From a virus (lineage: Duplodnaviria > Heunggongvirae > Uroviricota > Caudoviricetes), in IMG/VR virus record IMGVR_UViG_2778261161_000003, positions 1 through 15,670 of that record: 15,670 bases of DNA. The stretch is one strand, 5' to 3'. Under the pieces are notes generated by a model. The model made no database searches, was not told where the DNA came from, and saw only the letters and a program-made list of their open reading frames with translations. Of the stretch, positions 1-15,264 are shown one piece after another (the first letter of the stretch is position 1; each line of letters begins with the position of its first letter). The position numbers and the translations under genes were made by a program.

Positions 1-174
1 ATGGGATTGCTGAACAGGAACGATGTTGAAGTTGAGCTGCATCTTTGCATCAGGGATGATGAACCCAAGACTGCAAAGGTGAAATTACGAAGTCTTAAGG
101 ATATTGATGCGTGTGAGCGTCTGATTGATAAACTTGCTGCAGTGGTCGTAACTCCAAAACAGGATAGCGGGTAA
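1..174 (+). CDS. Hypothetical 57-aa ORF starting at the window edge; may be the 3' end of a longer gene
   Basis: ATG at 1 with in-frame TAA at 172-174, followed by a hairpin plus T-tract at 219-247. No family recognised. Not in the ORF track (under 60 aa). Confidence 0.3.
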   Translation: MGLLNRNDVEVELHLCIRDDEPKTAKVKLRSLKDIDACERLIDKLAAVVVTPKQDSG

Positions 175-218
175 ATAGCACAGCGGTTGTTTTGCATTGT
201 GGTTGCACCAAAAGAAAA

Positions 219-247
219 CCCGCAGGTTTTATGCTGCGGGTTTTTTT
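219..247. terminator. Bidirectional intrinsic terminator
   Basis: Stem CCCGCAG (219-225) / CTGCGGG (234-240) with 8-nt loop, then T7 (241-247) on the plus strand; an A-rich run upstream gives a T-tract on the minus strand too. Placed to end both the plus-strand ORF 1-174 and the minus-strand hok transcript. Confidence 0.6.
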
Positions 248-329
248 GTTGCGTTCATGTCTGGAATGGGTGCGTTTCGACCGCCTTTCGCAACCGAATG
301 ACGGGGGATTGCTCCCCCGTCGCGGTTTC

Positions 330-470
330 TTACTGTTTACACTGCAAGAACGCCGCAAACTCCGCTCCCCAAAAGCTCATCCGGATTTCGCAGAGTGACC
401 CCTGCAGCATCCAGATGATGAGGATTGCCGTCACGCATAGGGTGATGGCGGTTAGCGATTTTTGCGACAT
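330..470 (-). CDS. Hok/Gef-family type I toxin, 46 aa
   Basis: Minus-strand translation MSQKSLTAITLCVTAILIIWMLQGSLCEIRMSFWGAEFAAFLQCKQ. One N-terminal hydrophobic helix, conserved SLCEIR motif and C-terminal E-x-AAFL-x-C tail, as in Hok/Gef/RelF toxins. Strong SD GGAGG (revcomp of 479-483) 8 nt upstream of ATG (470-468); stop TAA at 332-330. Confidence 0.8.
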   Translation of the reverse strand: MSQKSLTAITLCVTAILIIWMLQGSLCEIRMSFWGAEFAAFLQCKQ

Positions 471-655
471 AGCGCTTGCCTCCTTAGTGGAGAGGCGCTA
501 ACCTTCTACTTGCTAAGGTATGAAGTGTTAGGGCCTCGGGTTAACGTTACGTTGACTCGGGGCCTTCTCACATCTGGCCTTCGGGAAATCCTCCAACCAT
601 CAGTCGAAGGCACCCGCGCGTAATTTACCGTCTTTTGTTTATTCCGGCAATTCTG
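471..655 (-). promoter_or_regulatory. hok mRNA leader and promoter region; expected location of a cis-antisense Sok-like RNA on the plus strand
   Basis: Minus-strand sigma70-like promoter: -35 TTGCCG (650-645), 17-bp spacer, -10 TAAATT (627-622). This gives a transcript of about 400 nt ending at the 219-247 terminator, the usual hok mRNA size. The antisense RNA itself could not be delimited by eye. No intact mok-like overlapping ORF with a start codon upstream of hok was found. Confidence 0.35.
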
Positions 656-659
656 GCCA

Positions 660-920
660 TCAGTTCCGGGGGAGGGGTAGGTTCATCTGACTGCAACCTC
701 TGTGCGAAGCTGGCAGGTCATGCCAGGGGATGCCCTCCGAAGAGTGAACGCCAGAGGCGTGTTTCGATGTGAATTTATGGAAAGCTTCCAGTGTTGAGAA
801 GCATACGCCGCATTCCAGGTTGTTACACTGGTAATATTTTTGCCGCACGGTATTCGAATCATTTTCCGGGCGACTGGTGCGGATACGGGCAGATGCGCCA
901 CAAAGCGGACAACGGAACAT
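660..920 (-). CDS. ogr: Ogr/Delta-family zinc-finger late-gene transcription activator
   Basis: MFRCPLCGASARIRTSR...QCNNLECGVCF matches the P2 Ogr C-x2-C...C-x4-C zinc-finger layout and N-terminal MFxCPLC signature. SD GGGAGG 5 nt upstream of ATG (920-918). The ORF is 86 aa against 72 aa for P2 Ogr. Confidence 0.85.
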   Translation of the reverse strand: MFRCPLCGASARIRTSRPENDSNTVRQKYYQCNNLECGVCFSTLEAFHKFTSKHASGVHSSEGIPWHDLPASHRGCSQMNLPLPRN

Positions 921-1164: not shown

Positions 1165-3132
1165 ATGACAGAATTTGAGATAAATAGCCCACTACTTCAT
1201 CTCGCTTTGCTTGAAACACTGAAGCGTGACGACATTCATGATGAGATAGATTTGTTTCTTCCGTTTATTGCTGTAACAGCCTCCGAAATTGGCAAGCCTG
1301 TTATTAATGAAAATGATATACAGGATAAACTTCAGCAAAACTTCGGGTTCAAGCCGCCACTGGCAGCAGTGAAGGTATTGATGACGCGAGCCAAGAAAAG
1401 AGGCCTTCTAATCCGTGAAAATTTCGCCTTTATTCCAGTGCACGAAAAAATAACTGAATGGAAAAATGGATTTGAGCATAAAAAAGAAGATGTAGAAACA
1501 TCTCTTGCAAGTCTCAAGCGTGAATTTATCATTTTTACAGAAGTCAACTTTGGTAAAAAACTATCTGATTCTGAAGCTGAAAAGTTAATTATCGGATTTA
1601 TTGAGGTTAACGTTAGTAGTGTGATAAGTCATAGGGCTTATCATCGAATGGAACAAGCAGAACGTATTAAAAATACTAATCATGTTATTGCATCTTTTAT
1701 TAGTCATATTCACCGAAACCAACCAAGAATTTTAGAAGATTTCAGTCGATGTGTAAAAGGTATGTTACTGGCTAACTATCTCTTTTATGCAGATAAGGCC
1801 ACAGATAAAAAATCTTATAAGGGAATAACAGTTTACCTTGACTCTCCTATAGTCATTGGCATGCTTGGATATAGTGGACGCCAAGCAAAAGAGGCATATA
1901 CAGATTTTTTAAATCTTCTAAAATCACTAAGTATTGAGATAGTCATATTTGACCGTACACTTAATGAAATTGAAGGTTTACTATATGCATGGAAAAATGA
2001 TATTTCGAAGAAACGTTATGACCGTTTCAATACGAAGACACTTGAGTGGTTAAGGGCGCAAGGTTATGATGCTGAGCGTATTGATACTGACCTTAAGCTA
2101 CTTGAAAGTAATATCAATAAGCTTGATATCAATATTAAACTTGGTTTTACTCCGAAAACAAAGTTTCAATGCGATGAAGCTAAACTCCAGAGTGCTATTG
2201 GTCGGGCTTTTCACAGAGACAAAAATCTTGAGCACGATACTATTTGCATTTCCCGCATACATAATATGCGGGAAGGTAGAGTGATCAATAATCTTAGCCA
2301 GTCTTTTAGTGTTTTTGTTACGCCTAATACTAGCCTCGTCAAGGAAGCTAATGATTTTTTCCGTCATGATACTAAGCGCCAAGCTATTCCAGTCGTCGTT
2401 TCTGAACAGTGGATGACGGCTATGTTCTGGCTAAAAAAGCCAGATATTTATGCTCAACTACCTCAAGAGCAGCTTCTTTCAACGGCCTACAGTTTATTGT
2501 ACACCGACGATCGATTCTGGGAAGCTTTCATAAATCGTCTCGAAAATCTTGAAAAACGAGGAGATATTACTCAGGATGAGTTTCTTCAGATCCGCTGGGA
2601 TAGTGATCTTCTTCGGCTTGTGCATGATGTATCTGTCGATGTGGGAGAGGATTTTTCCGAGGAAGATGTTTTTGACGTGGTTAACACAATCAAGCGAAGG
2701 CATGAGGAAAAACATCAGAGTGATATGGCAGAGCTAGAAGACCGTGGCCGACAGGAACTAGAGAGTTTGCGTCAAAAAACATCCACACAACTTCAGACGA
2801 TTAATCTGGAAAAACAAGCTGCGCAGGCAAGAATTGAATCTTTAGAGCGAAAAATACGCAAGGGTAGTGCCTTTCTAGCTGGCGCTTTAGCTTGGTTTTT
2901 TAGTGGATTGCTGGTCTTTTCTCTTTGTCTGGCTGCTGTCAAAGGAATTCCCGATGAAATGCAGCCCGCTATGTTTAGAAGTGACTTATTCAGAGGAAAT
3001 CTGGTAGGTGTTAGCATAATTGTTACTTCATTATTTGGAGTGCTCAGTAGTGTTACAGGAATTGATTTAGCCATTTGTCATAAATTCATAAAATCACGTA
3101 TTGAAAAATGGTTTTTTTCATTATTTAGTTGA
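1165..3132 (+). CDS. Hypothetical 655-aa protein: large soluble N-terminal region, coiled coil, two C-terminal transmembrane helices; AT-rich cargo gene
   Basis: Long uninterrupted ORF in a visibly AT-rich segment. Heptad-like charged region at about aa 520-570 (ELEDRGRQELESLRQ...IESLERKIRK), then hydrophobic helices AFLAGALAWFFSGLLVFSLCLAAV and LVGVSIIVTSLFGVLSSVTGIDLAI. No Walker A or other catalytic motif recognised. Start ATG 1165 has only a weak SD. Confidence 0.7.
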   Translation: MTEFEINSPLLHLALLETLKRDDIHDEIDLFLPFIAVTASEIGKPVINENDIQDKLQQNFGFKPPLAAVKVLMTRAKKRGLLIRENFAFIPVHEKITEWKNGFEHKKEDVETSLASLKREFIIFTEVNFGKKLSDSEAEKLIIGFIEVNVSSVISHRAYHRMEQAERIKNTNHVIASFISHIHRNQPRILEDFSRCVKGMLLANYLFYADKATDKKSYKGITVYLDSPIVIGMLGYSGRQAKEAYTDFLNLLKSLSIEIVIFDRTLNEIEGLLYAWKNDISKKRYDRFNTKTLEWLRAQGYDAERIDTDLKLLESNINKLDINIKLGFTPKTKFQCDEAKLQSAIGRAFHRDKNLEHDTICISRIHNMREGRVINNLSQSFSVFVTPNTSLVKEANDFFRHDTKRQAIPVVVSEQWMTAMFWLKKPDIYAQLPQEQLLSTAYSLLYTDDRFWEAFINRLENLEKRGDITQDEFLQIRWDSDLLRLVHDVSVDVGEDFSEEDVFDVVNTIKRRHEEKHQSDMAELEDRGRQELESLRQKTSTQLQTINLEKQAAQARIESLERKIRKGSAFLAGALAWFFSGLLVFSLCLAAVKGIPDEMQPAMFRSDLFRGNLVGVSIIVTSLFGVLSSVTGIDLAICHKFIKSRIEKWFFSLFS

Positions 3133-3314: not shown

Positions 3315-3680
3315 GTGCACAATAGACATCTAGGGGGAACCTTGGCTAAGGTGACCAGAATTCAGGCCGGGCAATATGCAGTAGATGATGGGCGTTTCAT
3401 CGTAAAAAATAGCTCAGGATGGCTCGTTGTTGATGTTAATGGCACCCATGATTTTGGGCCTGTTCCAACGCTAGCAGCAGCGAAACAATATGTTGAGTCT
3501 GGCGCGGTTCCGTTAGGGCAACATAATTTGTCTACAGTACATGGCCGCAGACAAAGCAAAAAAGAGTTTAATGCATATCTGGCATCTGAAGCTAAGAATG
3601 GTAATCCAATGCCAGCTATTCTTTGGATCATTGTTCTTTGTATCATCGGTGGTGTTGTCTTGGCTGTGAGAGGTTATTAG
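3315..3680 (+). CDS. Hypothetical small protein (about 109-121 aa) with a C-terminal transmembrane anchor
   Basis: ORF ends in hydrophobic segment AILWIIVLCIIGGVVLAVRGY. Start ambiguous: ATG 3315 or in-frame GTG 3351 downstream of AGGGGGAA. Same strand as the 655-aa gene. Confidence 0.45.
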   Translation: MHNRHLGGTLAKVTRIQAGQYAVDDGRFIVKNSSGWLVVDVNGTHDFGPVPTLAAAKQYVESGAVPLGQHNLSTVHGRRQSKKEFNAYLASEAKNGNPMPAILWIIVLCIIGGVVLAVRGY

Positions 3681-10779: not shown

Positions 10780-12018
10780 TTATAAAGAATTGCTACTTTC
10801 TAATTCTGGGTTTCTGGAACTATTTTTACAACCTAAATCCGAGTGGTAATTCGGTATATCGTTTGTCAAATCTTGTTTGATAGCATTAATTAAGATCATT
10901 ATGTCGAATTTATGCATATCGTCGCCCCCTTCAGACCTTAGATGTTCGGATGTGGTGAGTTGAGTCGCTAATTTGCTGTTTGGCCCCCACACAATATTAT
11001 TTTCGAATTTTCCTTCATGCATTCTGTTATTATATATACAGTATTGTCTAATGTTTAATGCACTGGCTAAATGTACAATGGCAGTATCTACAGTTATAAC
11101 AAAATCAGCATGGCGAACCAATGCAAATGAACATCCGGCATCAGAAAATGGAGATAGAGACACATTATCCAATCCATTGTGATTAATCTGTTTTCCCATA
11201 TTAAAAACTATTGTGTGATATCCCTTAAGGTTATTAAGGTAAGCTAGTACTTTTTTTATCTGTTCATCAGATAAGGTTCTGCTATTCTGAGAGCCATAAG
11301 GGTTAAATATAACTAATTTTTTGTTTTTTTTTCTGAATTCATTTGCAACAATATTTGCTGGTTCATATATTTTGTTGTCAAAATTAAGCGCTGCAGCATA
11401 ATTATTATTTTTTATCTTTAGTAAAGATAAAACTTTTTTCATTCTTTCAGATGTGTGAATGGAACGATTATCGATTATATTTGTATCAAAAATAGTTACG
11501 GCAGGATGATTAAAACAGATAGAGTGTTTAGGTCTAAGTAAATGTAGTGTTTGCAATCTGGTTATCGCTGTGTTATCAAAATTTGAGAAGTCAACAACAA
11601 GATCTACATTCAGTTTTTTTATCTTTGCTTTTAGTTCGTTAAATTTATTTTTCTCGTAAGATATAAAGGCATCCACGCCAACAATGTCAGTAAAGAGGAA
11701 TGATACTCTTGAAGGTGCTATCACATATACCACCATACCGGATTTTTGAAGTTGTTTAATAAACCCTGAGGTAACGATGCCGTCACCAATGGCTTGCATG
11801 TGCATGAAAATGCACACTGTTTTATAACTATCCGGCTGTAATGATGTTTTCCTTCTGTATCGCATTTTTAGAAATGCCAGTCTGGCCTTCGTCTTTATCT
11901 TTTTTGTTTTAATATTTCGCTGTCTGTTAAGCTGTTTTAACGATGAAATAACATTCATAATGGTACCCTGAAATTCCAAATCACACATGTCATCCGTAAT
12001 GAGCAGGGTACTATACAA
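10780..12018 (-). CDS. GT-B-fold glycosyltransferase, family 9 (heptosyltransferase-like) with N- and C-terminal extensions; AT-rich cargo gene
   Basis: N-terminal KTVCIFMHMQAIGDGIVTSGFIKQL resembles the GT9 motif (ILIIRLSSLGDV type). C-terminal FALVRHADFVITVDTAIVHLASALNIRQYCIY resembles the GT9 nucleotide-sugar-binding motif (GNDSG.MHLAAAL type). Start uncertain: TTG 12018, ATG 11988 or ATG 11958, all with weak SD. Confidence 0.65.
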   Translation of the reverse strand: MYSTLLITDDMCDLEFQGTIMNVISSLKQLNRQRNIKTKKIKTKARLAFLKMRYRRKTSLQPDSYKTVCIFMHMQAIGDGIVTSGFIKQLQKSGMVVYVIAPSRVSFLFTDIVGVDAFISYEKNKFNELKAKIKKLNVDLVVDFSNFDNTAITRLQTLHLLRPKHSICFNHPAVTIFDTNIIDNRSIHTSERMKKVLSLLKIKNNNYAAALNFDNKIYEPANIVANEFRKKNKKLVIFNPYGSQNSRTLSDEQIKKVLAYLNNLKGYHTIVFNMGKQINHNGLDNVSLSPFSDAGCSFALVRHADFVITVDTAIVHLASALNIRQYCIYNNRMHEGKFENNIVWGPNSKLATQLTTSEHLRSEGGDDMHKFDIMILINAIKQDLTNDIPNYHSDLGCKNSSRNPELESSNSL

Positions 12019-12052: not shown

Positions 12053-12652
12053 TTATGCTTGTTTACTCCTTGATTCCACTGGGGAAGCTGGCCACTCAAT
12101 ATCCGGTGCTCTTGATGTATCAACACGGTTCAGCAGCACTCGATACTTCTTCCATGCCACCAGTAACGATGTTTCTTCCTCTGTTGCAATATTCAAATCT
12201 ACGGCATCTTGAAGTGGCGAAATATGCTCACTGGCTACCTGCATGAGGCTGTTTTTTGTTTCTTCCGCCTCCCGTATCCGGAACACTTTTTCTGCTTCCG
12301 TATCCTTCACCCAGGCTATGCCGTTCCACTTCTGATATTCCCCTTCCGGCGACAACCAGGTGACATTTTCCGGTAACGGACCGAGTTCAGAAATAAATAA
12401 CGCGTCGCCGGAAGCCACGTCATAAACCGTTTTACCACGATGATCTTCAACGAGATGCCAGGACGCCCCATCACTGTTGAAAACAGCCACGAAGCCAGCT
12501 GGAATATCTGGCGGAGCAATATCAGTACTATTTGCAGGCAGACCTGTATGAGGTGGAATGTATGCATCACCTTCACCAATAAATTCATTGGTTCCGACCA
12601 GCAGATTATAAATTTTTATGGTCCGTGATTGTTCACTCATTCTGAATGTCAT
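12053..12652 (-). CDS. tfa: Tail fibre assembly chaperone (lambda Tfa / P2 gpG family)
   Basis: [51 protein letters not shown] and C-terminal [36 protein letters not shown] match lambdoid Tfa proteins closely. Start ATG overlaps the fibre stop (TAATG). Confidence 0.9.
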
Positions 12653-14289: not shown

Positions 14290-15264
14290 ATGAGCATAAA
14301 ATCAATTCCGGGAGGGTATCTTCTTGACATGCGCCCGGAGGGGCGTAAAGGCAAACGCATTCGTAAAAAATTTAAAACGAAATCGGATGCAGTTTTATAT
14401 GAGCGGTGGGTGCTGGCGCAACAGCATAACAATGAGTGGAAAGGAAACTCCATTGATCGCCGTCCGCTGTCAGTGCTTATTGACTTGTGGTGGAAATACC
14501 ACGGCCAGCTAATGAAGTCAGGGCATAACACGCGCCTTAAATTGCTGCGCTTGAGTGAGGCAATGGATGACCCGTGCGTGCATAAACTTAATACAACGAT
14601 GCTCACCGAGCTACGTGTGTCCAGGATAGAGCAGGGGATACAGCCCAGCACCATAAATCGAGAGATTGGGGCGTTAAGCGCGATGTTTACCGCACTCATC
14701 TCATCCGGCCATTTTCTTAACGATAACCCCGTTCAAGGCCTTAAAGGAATGAAGGTTAACGAGCGCGAAATGGGATATCTGAGTAAGTCTGAATGTGTTC
14801 AGTTGCTGGATGCACTGGCTGAAAATCCCGATGAACGGCTGGCTGTCGAAATCCTTCTGTCGACCGGGGCGCGATGGGGCGAGGTAGCGGCACTGGAGCA
14901 GCGCCGTGTTCTTCATTGTCGAATCACTTTTTCAAAAACGAAGAACAGCAAAAACCGTACCGTTCCTATTTCTGAAAGCCTGTTTGAAAAGATCAAAATA
15001 CGGGGCGGGAAACTGGTGTTTCCGACGCTGGATTATCCATTGGTTCGCGATGTCATCAAAACGGTCGCACCTGATGTTCCTGACGGCCAGGCTGTTCATG
15101 CGCTGCGCCACACCTTCGCCAGTCATTTCATGATGAACGGCGGCAATATTCTGACGCTCCAGAAAATTCTGGGGCACGCAAAGATTCAGACAACGATGAT
15201 TTATGCCCATCTTGCGCCGGATTACTTGCAGGATGCGGTGAGATTTAATCCTATTGCTGGGTAA
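14290..15264 (+). CDS. int: Tyrosine recombinase, P2 Int family
   Basis: MSIKSIPGGYLLDMRPEGRKGKRIRKKFKTKSDA N-terminus and catalytic motifs LSTGARWGEVAAL, HALRHTFASHFMMNGG, LGHAKIQTTMIYAHL are collinear with P2 integrase. Start placed at ATG 14290; the track ORF begins upstream at 14140. Confidence 0.9.
   Translation: MSIKSIPGGYLLDMRPEGRKGKRIRKKFKTKSDAVLYERWVLAQQHNNEWKGNSIDRRPLSVLIDLWWKYHGQLMKSGHNTRLKLLRLSEAMDDPCVHKLNTTMLTELRVSRIEQGIQPSTINREIGALSAMFTALISSGHFLNDNPVQGLKGMKVNEREMGYLSKSECVQLLDALAENPDERLAVEILLSTGARWGEVAALEQRRVLHCRITFSKTKNSKNRTVPISESLFEKIKIRGGKLVFPTLDYPLVRDVIKTVAPDVPDGQAVHALRHTFASHFMMNGGNILTLQKILGHAKIQTTMIYAHLAPDYLQDAVRFNPIAG

Follow-up and report, generated by a model that had tools for sequence, protein, structure and literature searches.

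The window, which is the whole stretch of DNA analysed here (15,670 nt), contains a genuine and ordinary Hok-family membrane-toxin gene with a predicted antisense RNA antidote, a locus that is already annotated and catalogued. The region 215-650 very probably constitutes a self-contained hok/Sok-type type I toxin-antitoxin cassette between the ogr gene and the attachment site of a prophage. Among type I toxin-antitoxin systems, hok/sok modules have been known the longest, and the missing mok leader is the sole unusual trait of an otherwise ordinary module. The reading of a hok-type I toxin locus given by the first-pass annotation is supported. The positions of the features are listed in Table 1.

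Table 1. Coordinates of the hok/Sok-type cassette and its neighbouring gene in the window.
Feature	Position	Strand	Description and basis
ogr/delta-type late activator gene	660-920	-	directly upstream of hok; Pfam Ogr_Delta 52.3 bits; annotation
hok promoter -35, TTGCCG	645-650	-	read off the sequence; 17 nt upstream of -10
hok promoter -10, TAAATT	622-627	-	read off the sequence; homology and fixed distance to the 5' end
Predicted full-length hok mRNA, 401 nt	215-615	-	5' end from Rfam RF01794 match, 3' end from terminator
tac element, 5'-terminal GGGUGCCUUCGACU	602-615	-	pairs with 268-282 in full-length MFE fold, with 559-571 in 3'-truncated fold
ucb-like box, AUGUGAGAAGGCCCC region	558-571	-	pairs with GAGG-containing segment in full-length fold, with tac in truncated fold
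GAGG at canonical mok Shine-Dalgarno position	534-537	-	aligns with GAGG of hokW, hokC and hokB; start codon absent after it
hok Shine-Dalgarno AAGGAGG	479-485	-	8 nt 5' of ATG; read off the sequence
hok coding sequence	330-470	-	46 aa and stop, MSQKSLTAITLCVTAILIIWMLQGSLCEIRMSFWGAEFAAFLQCKQ; Pfam, PHROG, dN/dS, RefSeq annotation
GC-rich two-tier 3' UTR stem-loop	292-327	-	AACCG/CGGUU around GACGGGGGA-GCAA-UCCCCCGUC
fbi element, GGUCGAAACGCACCC	268-282	-	pairs with mRNA 1-14 in MFE and centroid folds
Intrinsic terminator	215-244	-	scanner; A-tract and T-tract, usable in both directions
Sok promoter	476-504	+	-35 TTGCCT 476-481, 17-nt spacer, -10 TAACCT 499-504
Predicted Sok-like RNA, ~62 nt	511-572	+	19-nt 5' tail and hairpin 530-566; ends by homology

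The short minus-strand reading frame and its strong Shine-Dalgarno sequence are present as first described, and the frame is confirmed to encode a Hok/Gef-family peptide. The peptide matches the Pfam family PF01848 (HOK_GEF) with 30.7 bits (gathering score 22), residues 7-44 corresponding to positions 5-42 of the 42-position profile, and it matches PHROG 251 over its full length (E 1.3e-21). Seven residues are kept in more than 80% of 1,264 Hok peptides (M1, C16, T18, L30, C31, E32 and E41), and all seven are found here with the same spacing (M1, C12, T14, L26-C27-E28 and E37). Alignment with HokW, HokC and HokB, the kind of comparison that the first-pass annotation had called for, keeps these residues in register and shows L26, E28, E37 and A39 to be invariant. 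Comparisons of hok with its relatives gave dN/dS values of 0.04-0.28, indicating strong purifying selection. The P88 copy differs by 11 synonymous and 3 non-synonymous changes (dN/dS 0.06), and the comparison with the 933W-type copy gave a dN/dS of 0.22. The Hok-family signature noticed earlier is therefore borne out by the Pfam threshold, the PHROG match and the selection acting on the gene. With AAGGAGG, the Shine-Dalgarno sequence is stronger than in most relatives, which have AAAGGAG. The statement that the gene had been missed holds only for the open reading frame track of the first-pass annotation, because RefSeq annotates it (PGAP entry WP_052904797.1, "Hok/Gef family protein", E. coli MEI7BO1-21). 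The identical 46-aa peptide occurs on 137 public contigs.

Identity to canonical Hok proteins is ~25-30%, and the Hok of plasmid R1 has 52 aa. Assignment as a HokA orthologue was rejected, as the peptide scores 34.9 bits against NCBIfam NF007290, for which the cut-off is 89; some sources name it 'protein HokA' despite the failed equivalog cut-off. The label 'MokW-like host killing' on P88-type reading frames is the name of a PHROG family and is not evidence of orthology. Identity as hokW, to which this phage label might point, was also rejected: HokW has 51 aa, is 31% identical over 35 residues and is encoded elsewhere in 933W, a phage that carries both loci ~13 kb apart (at ~45.5 kb and 58.5 kb). 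In the Hok survey of Escalera-Maurer et al. (bioRxiv 10.1101/2025.08.07.668861), the peptide falls into the 60% identity cluster 72, in which 72_1621 differs from the present peptide by L11F and Q23H, and 72_1589 is the 933W-type peptide. These two members represent a high-abundance cluster among the 45 homologs tested for toxicity, and only three other homologs are named as non-toxic in the text of the preprint. The predicted toxin may thus be toxic, by analogy with a peptide two residues away that sits in the tested set and outside the named non-toxic ones. The survey covered and over-expressed coding sequences only, leaving Mok, Sok and mRNA structure aside.

A sigma70-like promoter had been proposed at 622-650, and hexamers are indeed found there, though they are weak (8 of 12 consensus matches with a 17-nt spacer). 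The consensus promoter scan of positions 1-1200 listed no promoter, which for the hok promoter is explained by the four mismatched positions, and the promoters were accordingly called from homology and constant spacing. In each unrelated upstream context compared, a TAnAnT hexamer is found 6-7 nt 5' of the conserved GGGTGCC end, the TAAATT hexamer aligns with the -10 elements of hokW, hokC and hokB, and homology among hok copies from different genomic contexts starts at about the -35 element. The predicted mRNA begins with the conserved GGGUGC at 615. The Rfam model of the hok leader, RF01794, matches 615-459 along the full model (1-157 of 157; E 1.2e-7) but scores 41.5 bits, below the gathering score of 59, and the scores are 47.9 bits in P88, 35.6 bits in 933W and 110-118 bits in the K-12 hokC and hokB controls. 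These controls showed that the model represents the sense-strand hok leader and that its start is the upstream GGGUGC. The terminator, expected near 219-247, was placed by the scanner at 244-215(-); it is kept in most ogr-linked copies and not in every context. Both RNA ends are thus predicted from sequence, giving a transcript from 615 to 215 that agrees with the earlier estimate of about 400 nt. The fold of this RNA has a minimum free energy (MFE) of -172.3 kcal/mol (z = -7.6), and none of 100 shuffled sequences folds as well.

Folding of the mRNA, as the first-pass annotation had suggested, predicts a fold-back between its two ends. The MFE and centroid folds agree in pairing mRNA positions 1-14 (tac) with 334-348 (fbi). 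The pairing shows compensatory changes across subfamilies, with UUCGAC/GUCGAA here, UUGAGG/CCUCAA in hokW and UGAGA/UCUCA in hokB, and the covarying bases adjoin an invariant GGGUGC/GCACCC. Inside the subfamily no covariation signal between tac and fbi was detected (mean duplex energy of -27.65 kcal/mol for cognate vs. -27.62 kcal/mol for non-cognate pairs), because the 5' end hardly varies there. As a stand-alone statistic the 5'/3' duplex energy is weak, since an equal or better score is reached by 91 of 10,424 windows (approximately the top 1%). In the fold of the 3'-truncated mRNA, positions 1-13 pair instead with 45-57, forming a tac/ucb helix. The consensus that RNAalifold built from 33 unique relatives likewise contains the tac/ucb helix and not tac/fbi, which we read as a probable alternative conformer and not as contrary to the fold-back. 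The hairpin at 302-319, noted earlier in the part of the 3' UTR where hok mRNAs carry fold-back elements, is real as a part of the two-tier stem-loop; it is the fbi element, however, onto which the 5' end is predicted to fold back. The stem-loop is conserved across the subfamily through compensatory changes and has counterparts at equivalent positions in hokW and hokB, and its R1 equivalent shields the truncated mRNA from 3' exonucleases (PMC9841398). The hok Shine-Dalgarno region (mRNA bases 133-137) is predicted to pair with the upstream bases 123-127 (GCGCCUCUCC region). No switch that opens the Shine-Dalgarno sequence was found in the truncated fold, the probability of its being unpaired being 0.30 in the full-length and 0.33 in the truncated form. 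Thus, the folding model has no clear 'on' state, the Shine-Dalgarno sequence being partly paired in both forms.

A search of the plus strand between 480 and 610 for a small antisense RNA, also suggested in the first-pass annotation, located a putative cis-encoded Sok-like gene with its own promoter. The promoter hexamers and their 17-nt spacing are identical to those 5' of the annotated sokW in 933W, and the TAACCT hexamer is invariant across all aligned relatives. The predicted RNA folds with -32.4 kcal/mol (z = -5.4) into a tail and one hairpin, the same shape as the annotated SokW, SokC and SokB. The U-tract of its terminator is poor (CCUUCUC), and that of SokB is similarly poor (GGGGCCUUCGUCU).

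Comparison with the R1 hok/sok (parB) locus shows a close overall resemblance. The toxins of both are small Hok peptides with a single helix and share a Pfam family. Both have an mRNA of ~400 nt whose G-rich 5' tac pairs with the 3' fbi, the tac/ucb alternative after removal of the 3' end and a GC-rich 3' stem-loop (definitions from PMC9841398; the pairings are predicted here). A cis-antisense Sok of ~60 nt, consisting of a 5' tail and a hairpin and predicted in the window copy, arises inside the leader of both, and a GAGG is present where the mok Shine-Dalgarno sequence sits. However, the mok frame required in R1 is absent here, the R1 locus is borne on a plasmid whereas the window copy is borne on a prophage, and the window copy has a separate intrinsic terminator ~25 nt past fbi. 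The hokW-sokW locus (Sp5/933W) of the Stx2 prophage Sp5 is an experimentally shown toxin-antitoxin system (Takada et al. 2021, PMC8621323). It is likewise prophage-borne and shares, besides the Sok promoter, the arrangement of the mRNA, with AACGCACCC at fbi and a 3' stem-loop, but it has an annotated mokW in addition to the longer and divergent toxin. The K-12 hokB/sokB and hokC/sokC loci have a homologous leader, matching RF01794 with much higher scores than the window copy, and the same Sok shape. They differ in having annotated mok frames and in being core-chromosome loci, hokC being flanked by IS186.

The DNA itself reveals the family of the toxin, the conserved elements of the RNA, the fold-predicted pairings and the homology of the Sok promoter; transcription, 3' processing, RNase III decay, killing and the biological role would follow those of R1 hok/sok and hokW-sokW. 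By this analogy, the weak promoter would yield a stable hok mRNA of ~400 nt that is held closed and inert by the clamping of tac to fbi. Slow 3' trimming to the GC-rich stem-loop would strip fbi, upon which the freed 5' end would re-pair with the ucb box and the leader would open. The short-lived Sok, transcribed from the TTGCCT/TAACCT promoter, would pair with positions 44-105 of the mRNA, leading to its decay or silencing. If Sok were no longer supplied, because the element had been lost or transcription shut down, the 46-aa Hok would be translated and would damage the inner membrane.

The absence of an overlapping mok-like frame with a start codon upstream of hok, as stated in the first-pass annotation, was confirmed. 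No ATG, GTG or TTG lies within reach of the GAGG at the canonical position. The mok frame of the leader contains four stops (mRNA positions 46, 67, 73 and 130), the highest count among the 33 unique leaders, and an AUG at mRNA position 43 is directly followed by UGA. Among 90 related loci the frame is open in 59, and the most divergent members (L012 and L013) lack it. It is also absent at the copies of the temperate phages P88 and 933W. The long frame-2 reading frames of relatives, starting at ATG17 or ATG45, are uncertain candidates for a genuine mok, as the start codon varies and divergent members have no such frame; an open frame of ~33 codons has an estimated probability of ~0.2 of arising by chance. 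A 10-nt deletion at the mok AUG, suggested by the MAFFT alignment, was dropped, the spacer from GAGG to AGGTTAGC being 6 nt longer here than in hokW. Because the alignment is ambiguous at this point, the claim is limited to the missing start codon.

Hok synthesis in R1 strictly requires mok to be translated up to the hok Shine-Dalgarno sequence (PMC9841398). With no mok frame, the window copy must start Hok directly from its own strong AAGGAGG site or be silent. We tentatively suggest that the hok loci of cluster 72 may function without mok. Hok would be translated from its own Shine-Dalgarno sequence, and control would be exerted by the change from tac/fbi to tac/ucb together with pairing of Sok at least 26 nt upstream of the Shine-Dalgarno sequence; alternatively, short non-conserved upstream reading frames ending 16-50 nt 5' of the hok AUG may take the place of mok. 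It is somewhat less probable that the locus is a translationally dead relic, in which no ribosome would unfold the hairpin that hides the Shine-Dalgarno sequence and only Sok might matter, for example by neutralising an incoming 933W-type hok of the same specificity. The four stops in the leader, the requirement for mok in R1, the partly paired Shine-Dalgarno sequence in the predicted folds and the decayed state of the host prophage are in line with such a relic, and the Sok tail region resembles that of 933W. The discussion of the Hok survey also regards the K-12 chromosomal hok loci as mostly inactive (bioRxiv 10.1101/2025.08.07.668861). However, the hok frame is intact and its low dN/dS values against P88 and 933W come from pairs that all lack mok, which would be unexpected for an untranslated gene. 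The temperate phages P88 and 933W likewise lack the frame, the Shine-Dalgarno sequence is stronger than that of most relatives, and both promoters, of hok and of Sok, are intact, as are tac, ucb, fbi and the 3' stem.

The host element, in E. coli, is a degraded 15-kb remnant of a P88-like (P2-family) prophage, inserted at the ihfA terminator and flanked by a 26-bp direct repeat. The cassette had been described as abutting the prophage end. It does lie near the end, between ogr and the attachment site, but the junction is ~450 nt past the terminator, beyond the left edge of the window, with a 57-aa reading frame in between. Related loci were located with a three-sequence alignment as query. Of 5,426 complete E. 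coli genomes, 1,547 carry the ogr and hok pair, which is also present in the phages P88, Chuche and P884B11. The same cassette with its own promoter is seen elsewhere too, following lom in Stx phages and on plasmids. A low-GC gene of 655 aa neighbours the cassette, for which no match was found in PADLOC, Pfam, PHROGs or NCBIfam or by tblastn against phages.

A contribution to lysis and phage release after induction in intact relatives, as for hokW-sokW, is rather unlikely. Read-through from ogr would lift the hok mRNA over Sok late in infection, and the function would be vestigial in this remnant. In Sp5, hokW-sokW raises phage release two-fold, and HokW is synthesised once RecA-dependent induction has occurred (PMC8621323). 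Here the same strand carries ogr immediately 5' of hok, the scanner found no terminator between the two genes (615-660), and the linkage of ogr and hok is conserved in P88-like phages. However, the read-through remains a predicted event, the cassette uses its own promoter where ogr is not its neighbour, and the island has no head and lysis genes.

More doubtful still is a main role in abortive-infection defence against lytic phages instead of prophage retention, by analogy with the action of R1 on T4. R1 hok/sok on a high-copy plasmid lowered the plating of T4 by 42% and the size of its plaques by ~85%, as cited in PMC8621323. Moreover, hok genes are four-fold enriched in prophages, and P2-like prophages have cargo slots, here with the low-GC gene adjacent. 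However, the Hok survey reports no enrichment of hok near defence systems (bioRxiv 10.1101/2025.08.07.668861), and the only studied prophage hok/sok, hokW-sokW, promotes phage release (PMC8621323). PADLOC had no model matching the peptide at E <= 0.01, a result that says little either way because none of the models in its library matched the peptide. Chance matches of the frame and its motifs, to which the very short frame and the weak promoter missed by the scanner might point, are refuted by the Pfam and PHROG matches, the strong purifying selection on hok, the ~1,500 genomes sharing the module and the end-to-end match of the leader to the Rfam model.

The locus alone has little impact: the enrichment of hok in prophages is documented, the exact peptide is annotated and its cluster has already been toxicity-tested. 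Its use lies in the RNA-level annotation (promoter, tac, ucb, fbi, 3' stem-loop and Sok) of a cluster that has been examined by coding sequence only. The mok frame is broken here and in P88 and 933W and is unconserved across the cluster, yet the toxin is under purifying selection. If the tentative reading of the cluster is true, it would represent a mok-independent version of the textbook hok/sok circuit, and if the mok-less copies are active, the R1 rule of mandatory mok translation would fail for part of the family.

A genuine type I toxin-antitoxin cassette of the Hok/Sok type lies near the ogr end of a P2-family prophage remnant; the first-pass annotation that proposed it was correct in almost all respects. 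The gene already carries a public annotation and is a member of a catalogued Hok cluster. The 46-aa product exceeds the curated Pfam HOK_GEF threshold (30.7 bits vs. 22), is covered at full length by PHROG 251 (E 1.3e-21) and carries, correctly spaced, all seven residues conserved in >80% of 1,264 Hok peptides, bearing out its Hok-family signature. Against the NCBIfam HokA equivalog it scores 34.9 bits, under the cut-off of 89. The Shine-Dalgarno sequence, AAGGAGG 8 nt before the start, is as strong as described. The ORFs of the window and phage P88 differ by 11 synonymous and 3 non-synonymous changes, with dN/dS of 0.06 for that pair, 0.04 for the window and the commonest variant, and 0.22 for the window and 933W. 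The family matches, conserved residues and mostly silent divergence show a real coding gene under selection rather than a chance ORF. Identical peptides are encoded on 137 public contigs; the description of the ORF as missed does not hold for public annotation, since PGAP calls it 'Hok/Gef family protein' (WP_052904797.1).

Feature coordinates of the hok locus and its island (window positions unless stated)
Feature	Sequence or content	Position	Strand	Remark
hok CDS	MSQKSLTAITLCVTAILIIWMLQGSLCEIRMSFWGAEFAAFLQCKQ (product)	330-470	-	
hok promoter -10	TAAATT	622-627	-	6 nt upstream of predicted 5' end
hok promoter -35	TTGCCG	645-650	-	17 nt further upstream of -10
Terminator		244-215	-	scanner
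Sok promoter -35	TTGCCT	476-481	+	identical to hexamer upstream of annotated sokW
Sok promoter -10	TAACCT	499-504	+	identical to sokW upstream hexamer
Predicted Sok-like RNA		about 511-572	+	19-nt tail and one long hairpin, 530-566
26-bp flanking repeats		about -262 to -237 and about 14817-14842		17589-17614 and 32668-32693 of L001 (island with flanks)
Island genes 1, in window order	57-aa ORF, hok, ogr			annotation
Island genes 2, after ogr	two ORFs without known function			annotation
Island genes 3	P2-type tail genes D, FI, FII, E, E', T, U			annotation
Island genes 4	GT9 glycosyltransferase, then tail-fibre fragments			annotation
Island genes 5	HTH repressor-like gene and integrase			annotation

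The chromosome of E. coli MEI7BO1-21 (NZ_CM149560.1) matches the window at 99.9% identity, over a stretch that starts ~280 nt past ihfA and ends within btuC. Both genes are adjacent in K-12, and the comparison delimits a 15.05-kb insertion (window -236 to 14816) in MEI7BO1-21. On either side it is flanked by the ihfA terminator, directly repeated over 26 bp (GGCCGCTCTGCGGCCTTTTT(T)CTTTT), which places the att core within that terminator. Its annotated genes include no head, lysis or replication modules; thus, the island is a P2-family prophage remnant, with P88-like phages (Xuanwuvirus) as closest phage relatives. The hok locus lies near the ogr end but does not abut the prophage end as claimed, the insertion beginning at -236. 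The neighboring 57-aa ORF, 1-174(+), aligns to PHROG 14142 (function unknown) only at the C-terminal half (72-127 of 128) and is therefore probably a truncated gene; it shares a bidirectional terminator (215-247) with hok. Between ogr and gpD lie a 655-aa ORF, 1165-3132(+), and a 109-aa ORF, 3351-3680(+), with a GC content of 36-43% vs. ~54% in the tail genes. Neither matches Pfam, PADLOC, PHROGs or NCBIfam, and tblastn of the 655-aa protein, which has two hydrophobic stretches at its C-terminal end, found no match in 50,697 phage records. In another strain a YecA-family gene occupies this position, and P88 has nothing there, so it looks like a variable cargo slot with an unknown gene. The gene for a family-9 glycosyltransferase, 10780-11958(-), has 33% GC and is inserted between U, a tail gene, and the gene for tail-fibre assembly; it is probably a further moron and may act in LPS modification. 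An Rfam IS009 match, 12111-12309(-) (187 bits, gathering score 117), falls within the gene annotated for tail-fibre assembly; the 'sRNA' family thus overlaps coding sequence here.

On K-12 hokC and hokB (L003 and L004), the Rfam 'sok' model RF01794 matches the toxin strand, from the GGGUGC that precedes hok as far as the AUG of the toxin gene. RF01794 is the sense-strand hok leader, antisense to annotated sokC and sokB, and strand calls from this 'sok antitoxin' model should be read with the toxin-sense orientation in mind. In the window it matches end to end from 615 to 459 (E 1.2e-7; its 41.5 bits fall short of the gathering score, 59), which sets the predicted mRNA 5' end at 615. A consensus promoter scan did not list the hok promoter, because only 8 of 12 consensus positions match. 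A -10-like hexamer stands at a constant distance from GGGTGCC in every genomic context compared, and the predicted -10 aligns with those of hokW, hokC and hokB. The transcript of about 400 nt proposed from a promoter at 622-650 is thereby upheld as a prediction, at 401 nt.

Folding of this transcript gave a minimum free energy (MFE) of -172.3 kcal/mol (z = -7.6; all 100 shuffled controls folded less stably). The MFE and centroid structures agree in pairing mRNA positions 1-14 (window 602-615) with 334-348 (window 268-282, GGUCGAAACGCACCC), corresponding to the 5' element tac and its 3' partner fbi, whose fold-back defines hok mRNAs (PMC9841398). The duplex energy by itself ranks only in about the top 1% of windows. 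Removal of the 3' end in the predicted fold re-pairs the 5' end with positions 45-57, the alternative partner ucb, and the RNAalifold consensus of 33 relatives is this 5' end/ucb helix. GGGUGC/GCACCC is invariant, and the adjoining helix changes on both sides between subfamilies (UUCGAC/GUCGAA in the window, UUGAGG/CCUCAA in hokW, UGAGA/UCUCA in hokB). Comparison of tac and fbi within the window's own subfamily gave no cognate signal, as the 5' end barely varies. The 3' UTR hairpin at 302-319 noted in the first pass is the core of a two-tier stem-loop (292-327), conserved with compensatory changes and at the same position in hokW and hokB. The 5'/3' fold-back that had been anticipated is present in the predicted structure, but its partner is 268-282 rather than this hairpin. 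In R1, the equivalent stem shields the processed mRNA from 3' exonucleases, and the tac/fbi, ucb, mok and 3'-stem elements have been re-validated (Le Rhun et al. 2022, PMC9841398).

A search of the plus strand at 480-610, suggested earlier, located the predicted Sok promoter and RNA. The hexamers are spaced by 17 nt, as upstream of the sokW RNA annotated in 933W. The predicted RNA folds at -32.4 kcal/mol (z = -5.4) into the shape of annotated SokW, SokC and SokB and is complementary to mRNA positions 44-105. Its tail region varies among related loci (at least 14 types), and the window type resembles that of 933W.

Among 5,426 complete E. coli genomes, 1,547 contain the ogr-hok pair at ~86% nucleotide identity; the window's own allele, at ≥99%, is present in a single genome. 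The module adjoins ogr in phages P88, Chuche and P884B11, lies between lom and L0129, often without annotation, in Stx phages 933W, VT2-Sakai/Sp5 and Min27, and is also carried by some plasmids. Among 90 collected hok loci (33 unique leaders), homology across genomic contexts begins at the -35 hexamer and stops just past fbi, limits that mark a mobile cassette bringing its own promoter. Assemblies under the names Planococcaceae, Vagococcus and Xanthomonas pisi also contain near-identical enterobacterial loci (L007, L008 and L011). The contigs of L007 and L011 are short (4.2 and 0.9 kb), and contamination is the most likely reason for these two labels, rather than a true host; the Vagococcus contig is 226 kb long.

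Equating the window's hok with hokW was rejected, the peptides being 31% identical over 35 residues. 933W and Sp5 contain both loci, hokW-sokW at ~58.5 kb and the 46-aa hok at ~45.5 kb. [quoted passage not shown] 2021, PMC8621323). In 933W (AF125520.1) the 46-aa hok of cluster 72 is unannotated (2042-2182 of L006, about 45.65-45.8 kb). VT2-Sakai and many further Stx phage records likewise have it without annotation, flanked by lom and L0129 and ~13 kb from the annotated hokW/mokW/sokW.

The reported absence of a mok-like overlapping frame with a start codon was confirmed. GAGG, the mok Shine-Dalgarno sequence of canonical loci, is present at 534-537 but is followed by no start codon in the window copy, and stop codons interrupt the canonical mok frame at mRNA positions 46, 67, 73 and 130. 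In 59 of the 90 related loci (13 of 33 unique leaders), an ATG at 17 or 45 in the mok frame begins a reading frame that continues past the start of hok. No such frame exists in the remaining 31, among them the window, P88 and 933W as well as divergent copies from Salmonella diarizonae and Citrobacter. Since the start codon of the open frame differs between loci and a chance frame of about 33 codons is, by our own estimate, not rare, a conserved mok in this cluster is treated as unproven. The predicted folds show no clear switch opening the Shine-Dalgarno sequence. Translation of mok as far as the hok Shine-Dalgarno sequence is mandatory in R1 (PMC9841398); on this comparison, Hok of the window copy must either initiate directly at its own strong Shine-Dalgarno sequence or stay silent.

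A recent preprint (Escalera-Maurer et al., bioRxiv 10.1101/2025.08.07.668861) catalogued 32,532 hok loci with a four-fold prophage enrichment and tested 45 peptides. The representatives of a high-abundance cluster given in its Table S2 include 72_1621, which differs from the window peptide by 2 aa, and 72_1589, of the 933W type; its text names only three non-toxic peptides, neither of these among them. Mok, Sok and mRNA structure lay outside that analysis. By analogy with R1, retention of the element or addiction may be tentatively favored as the role over help in lysis or defence.
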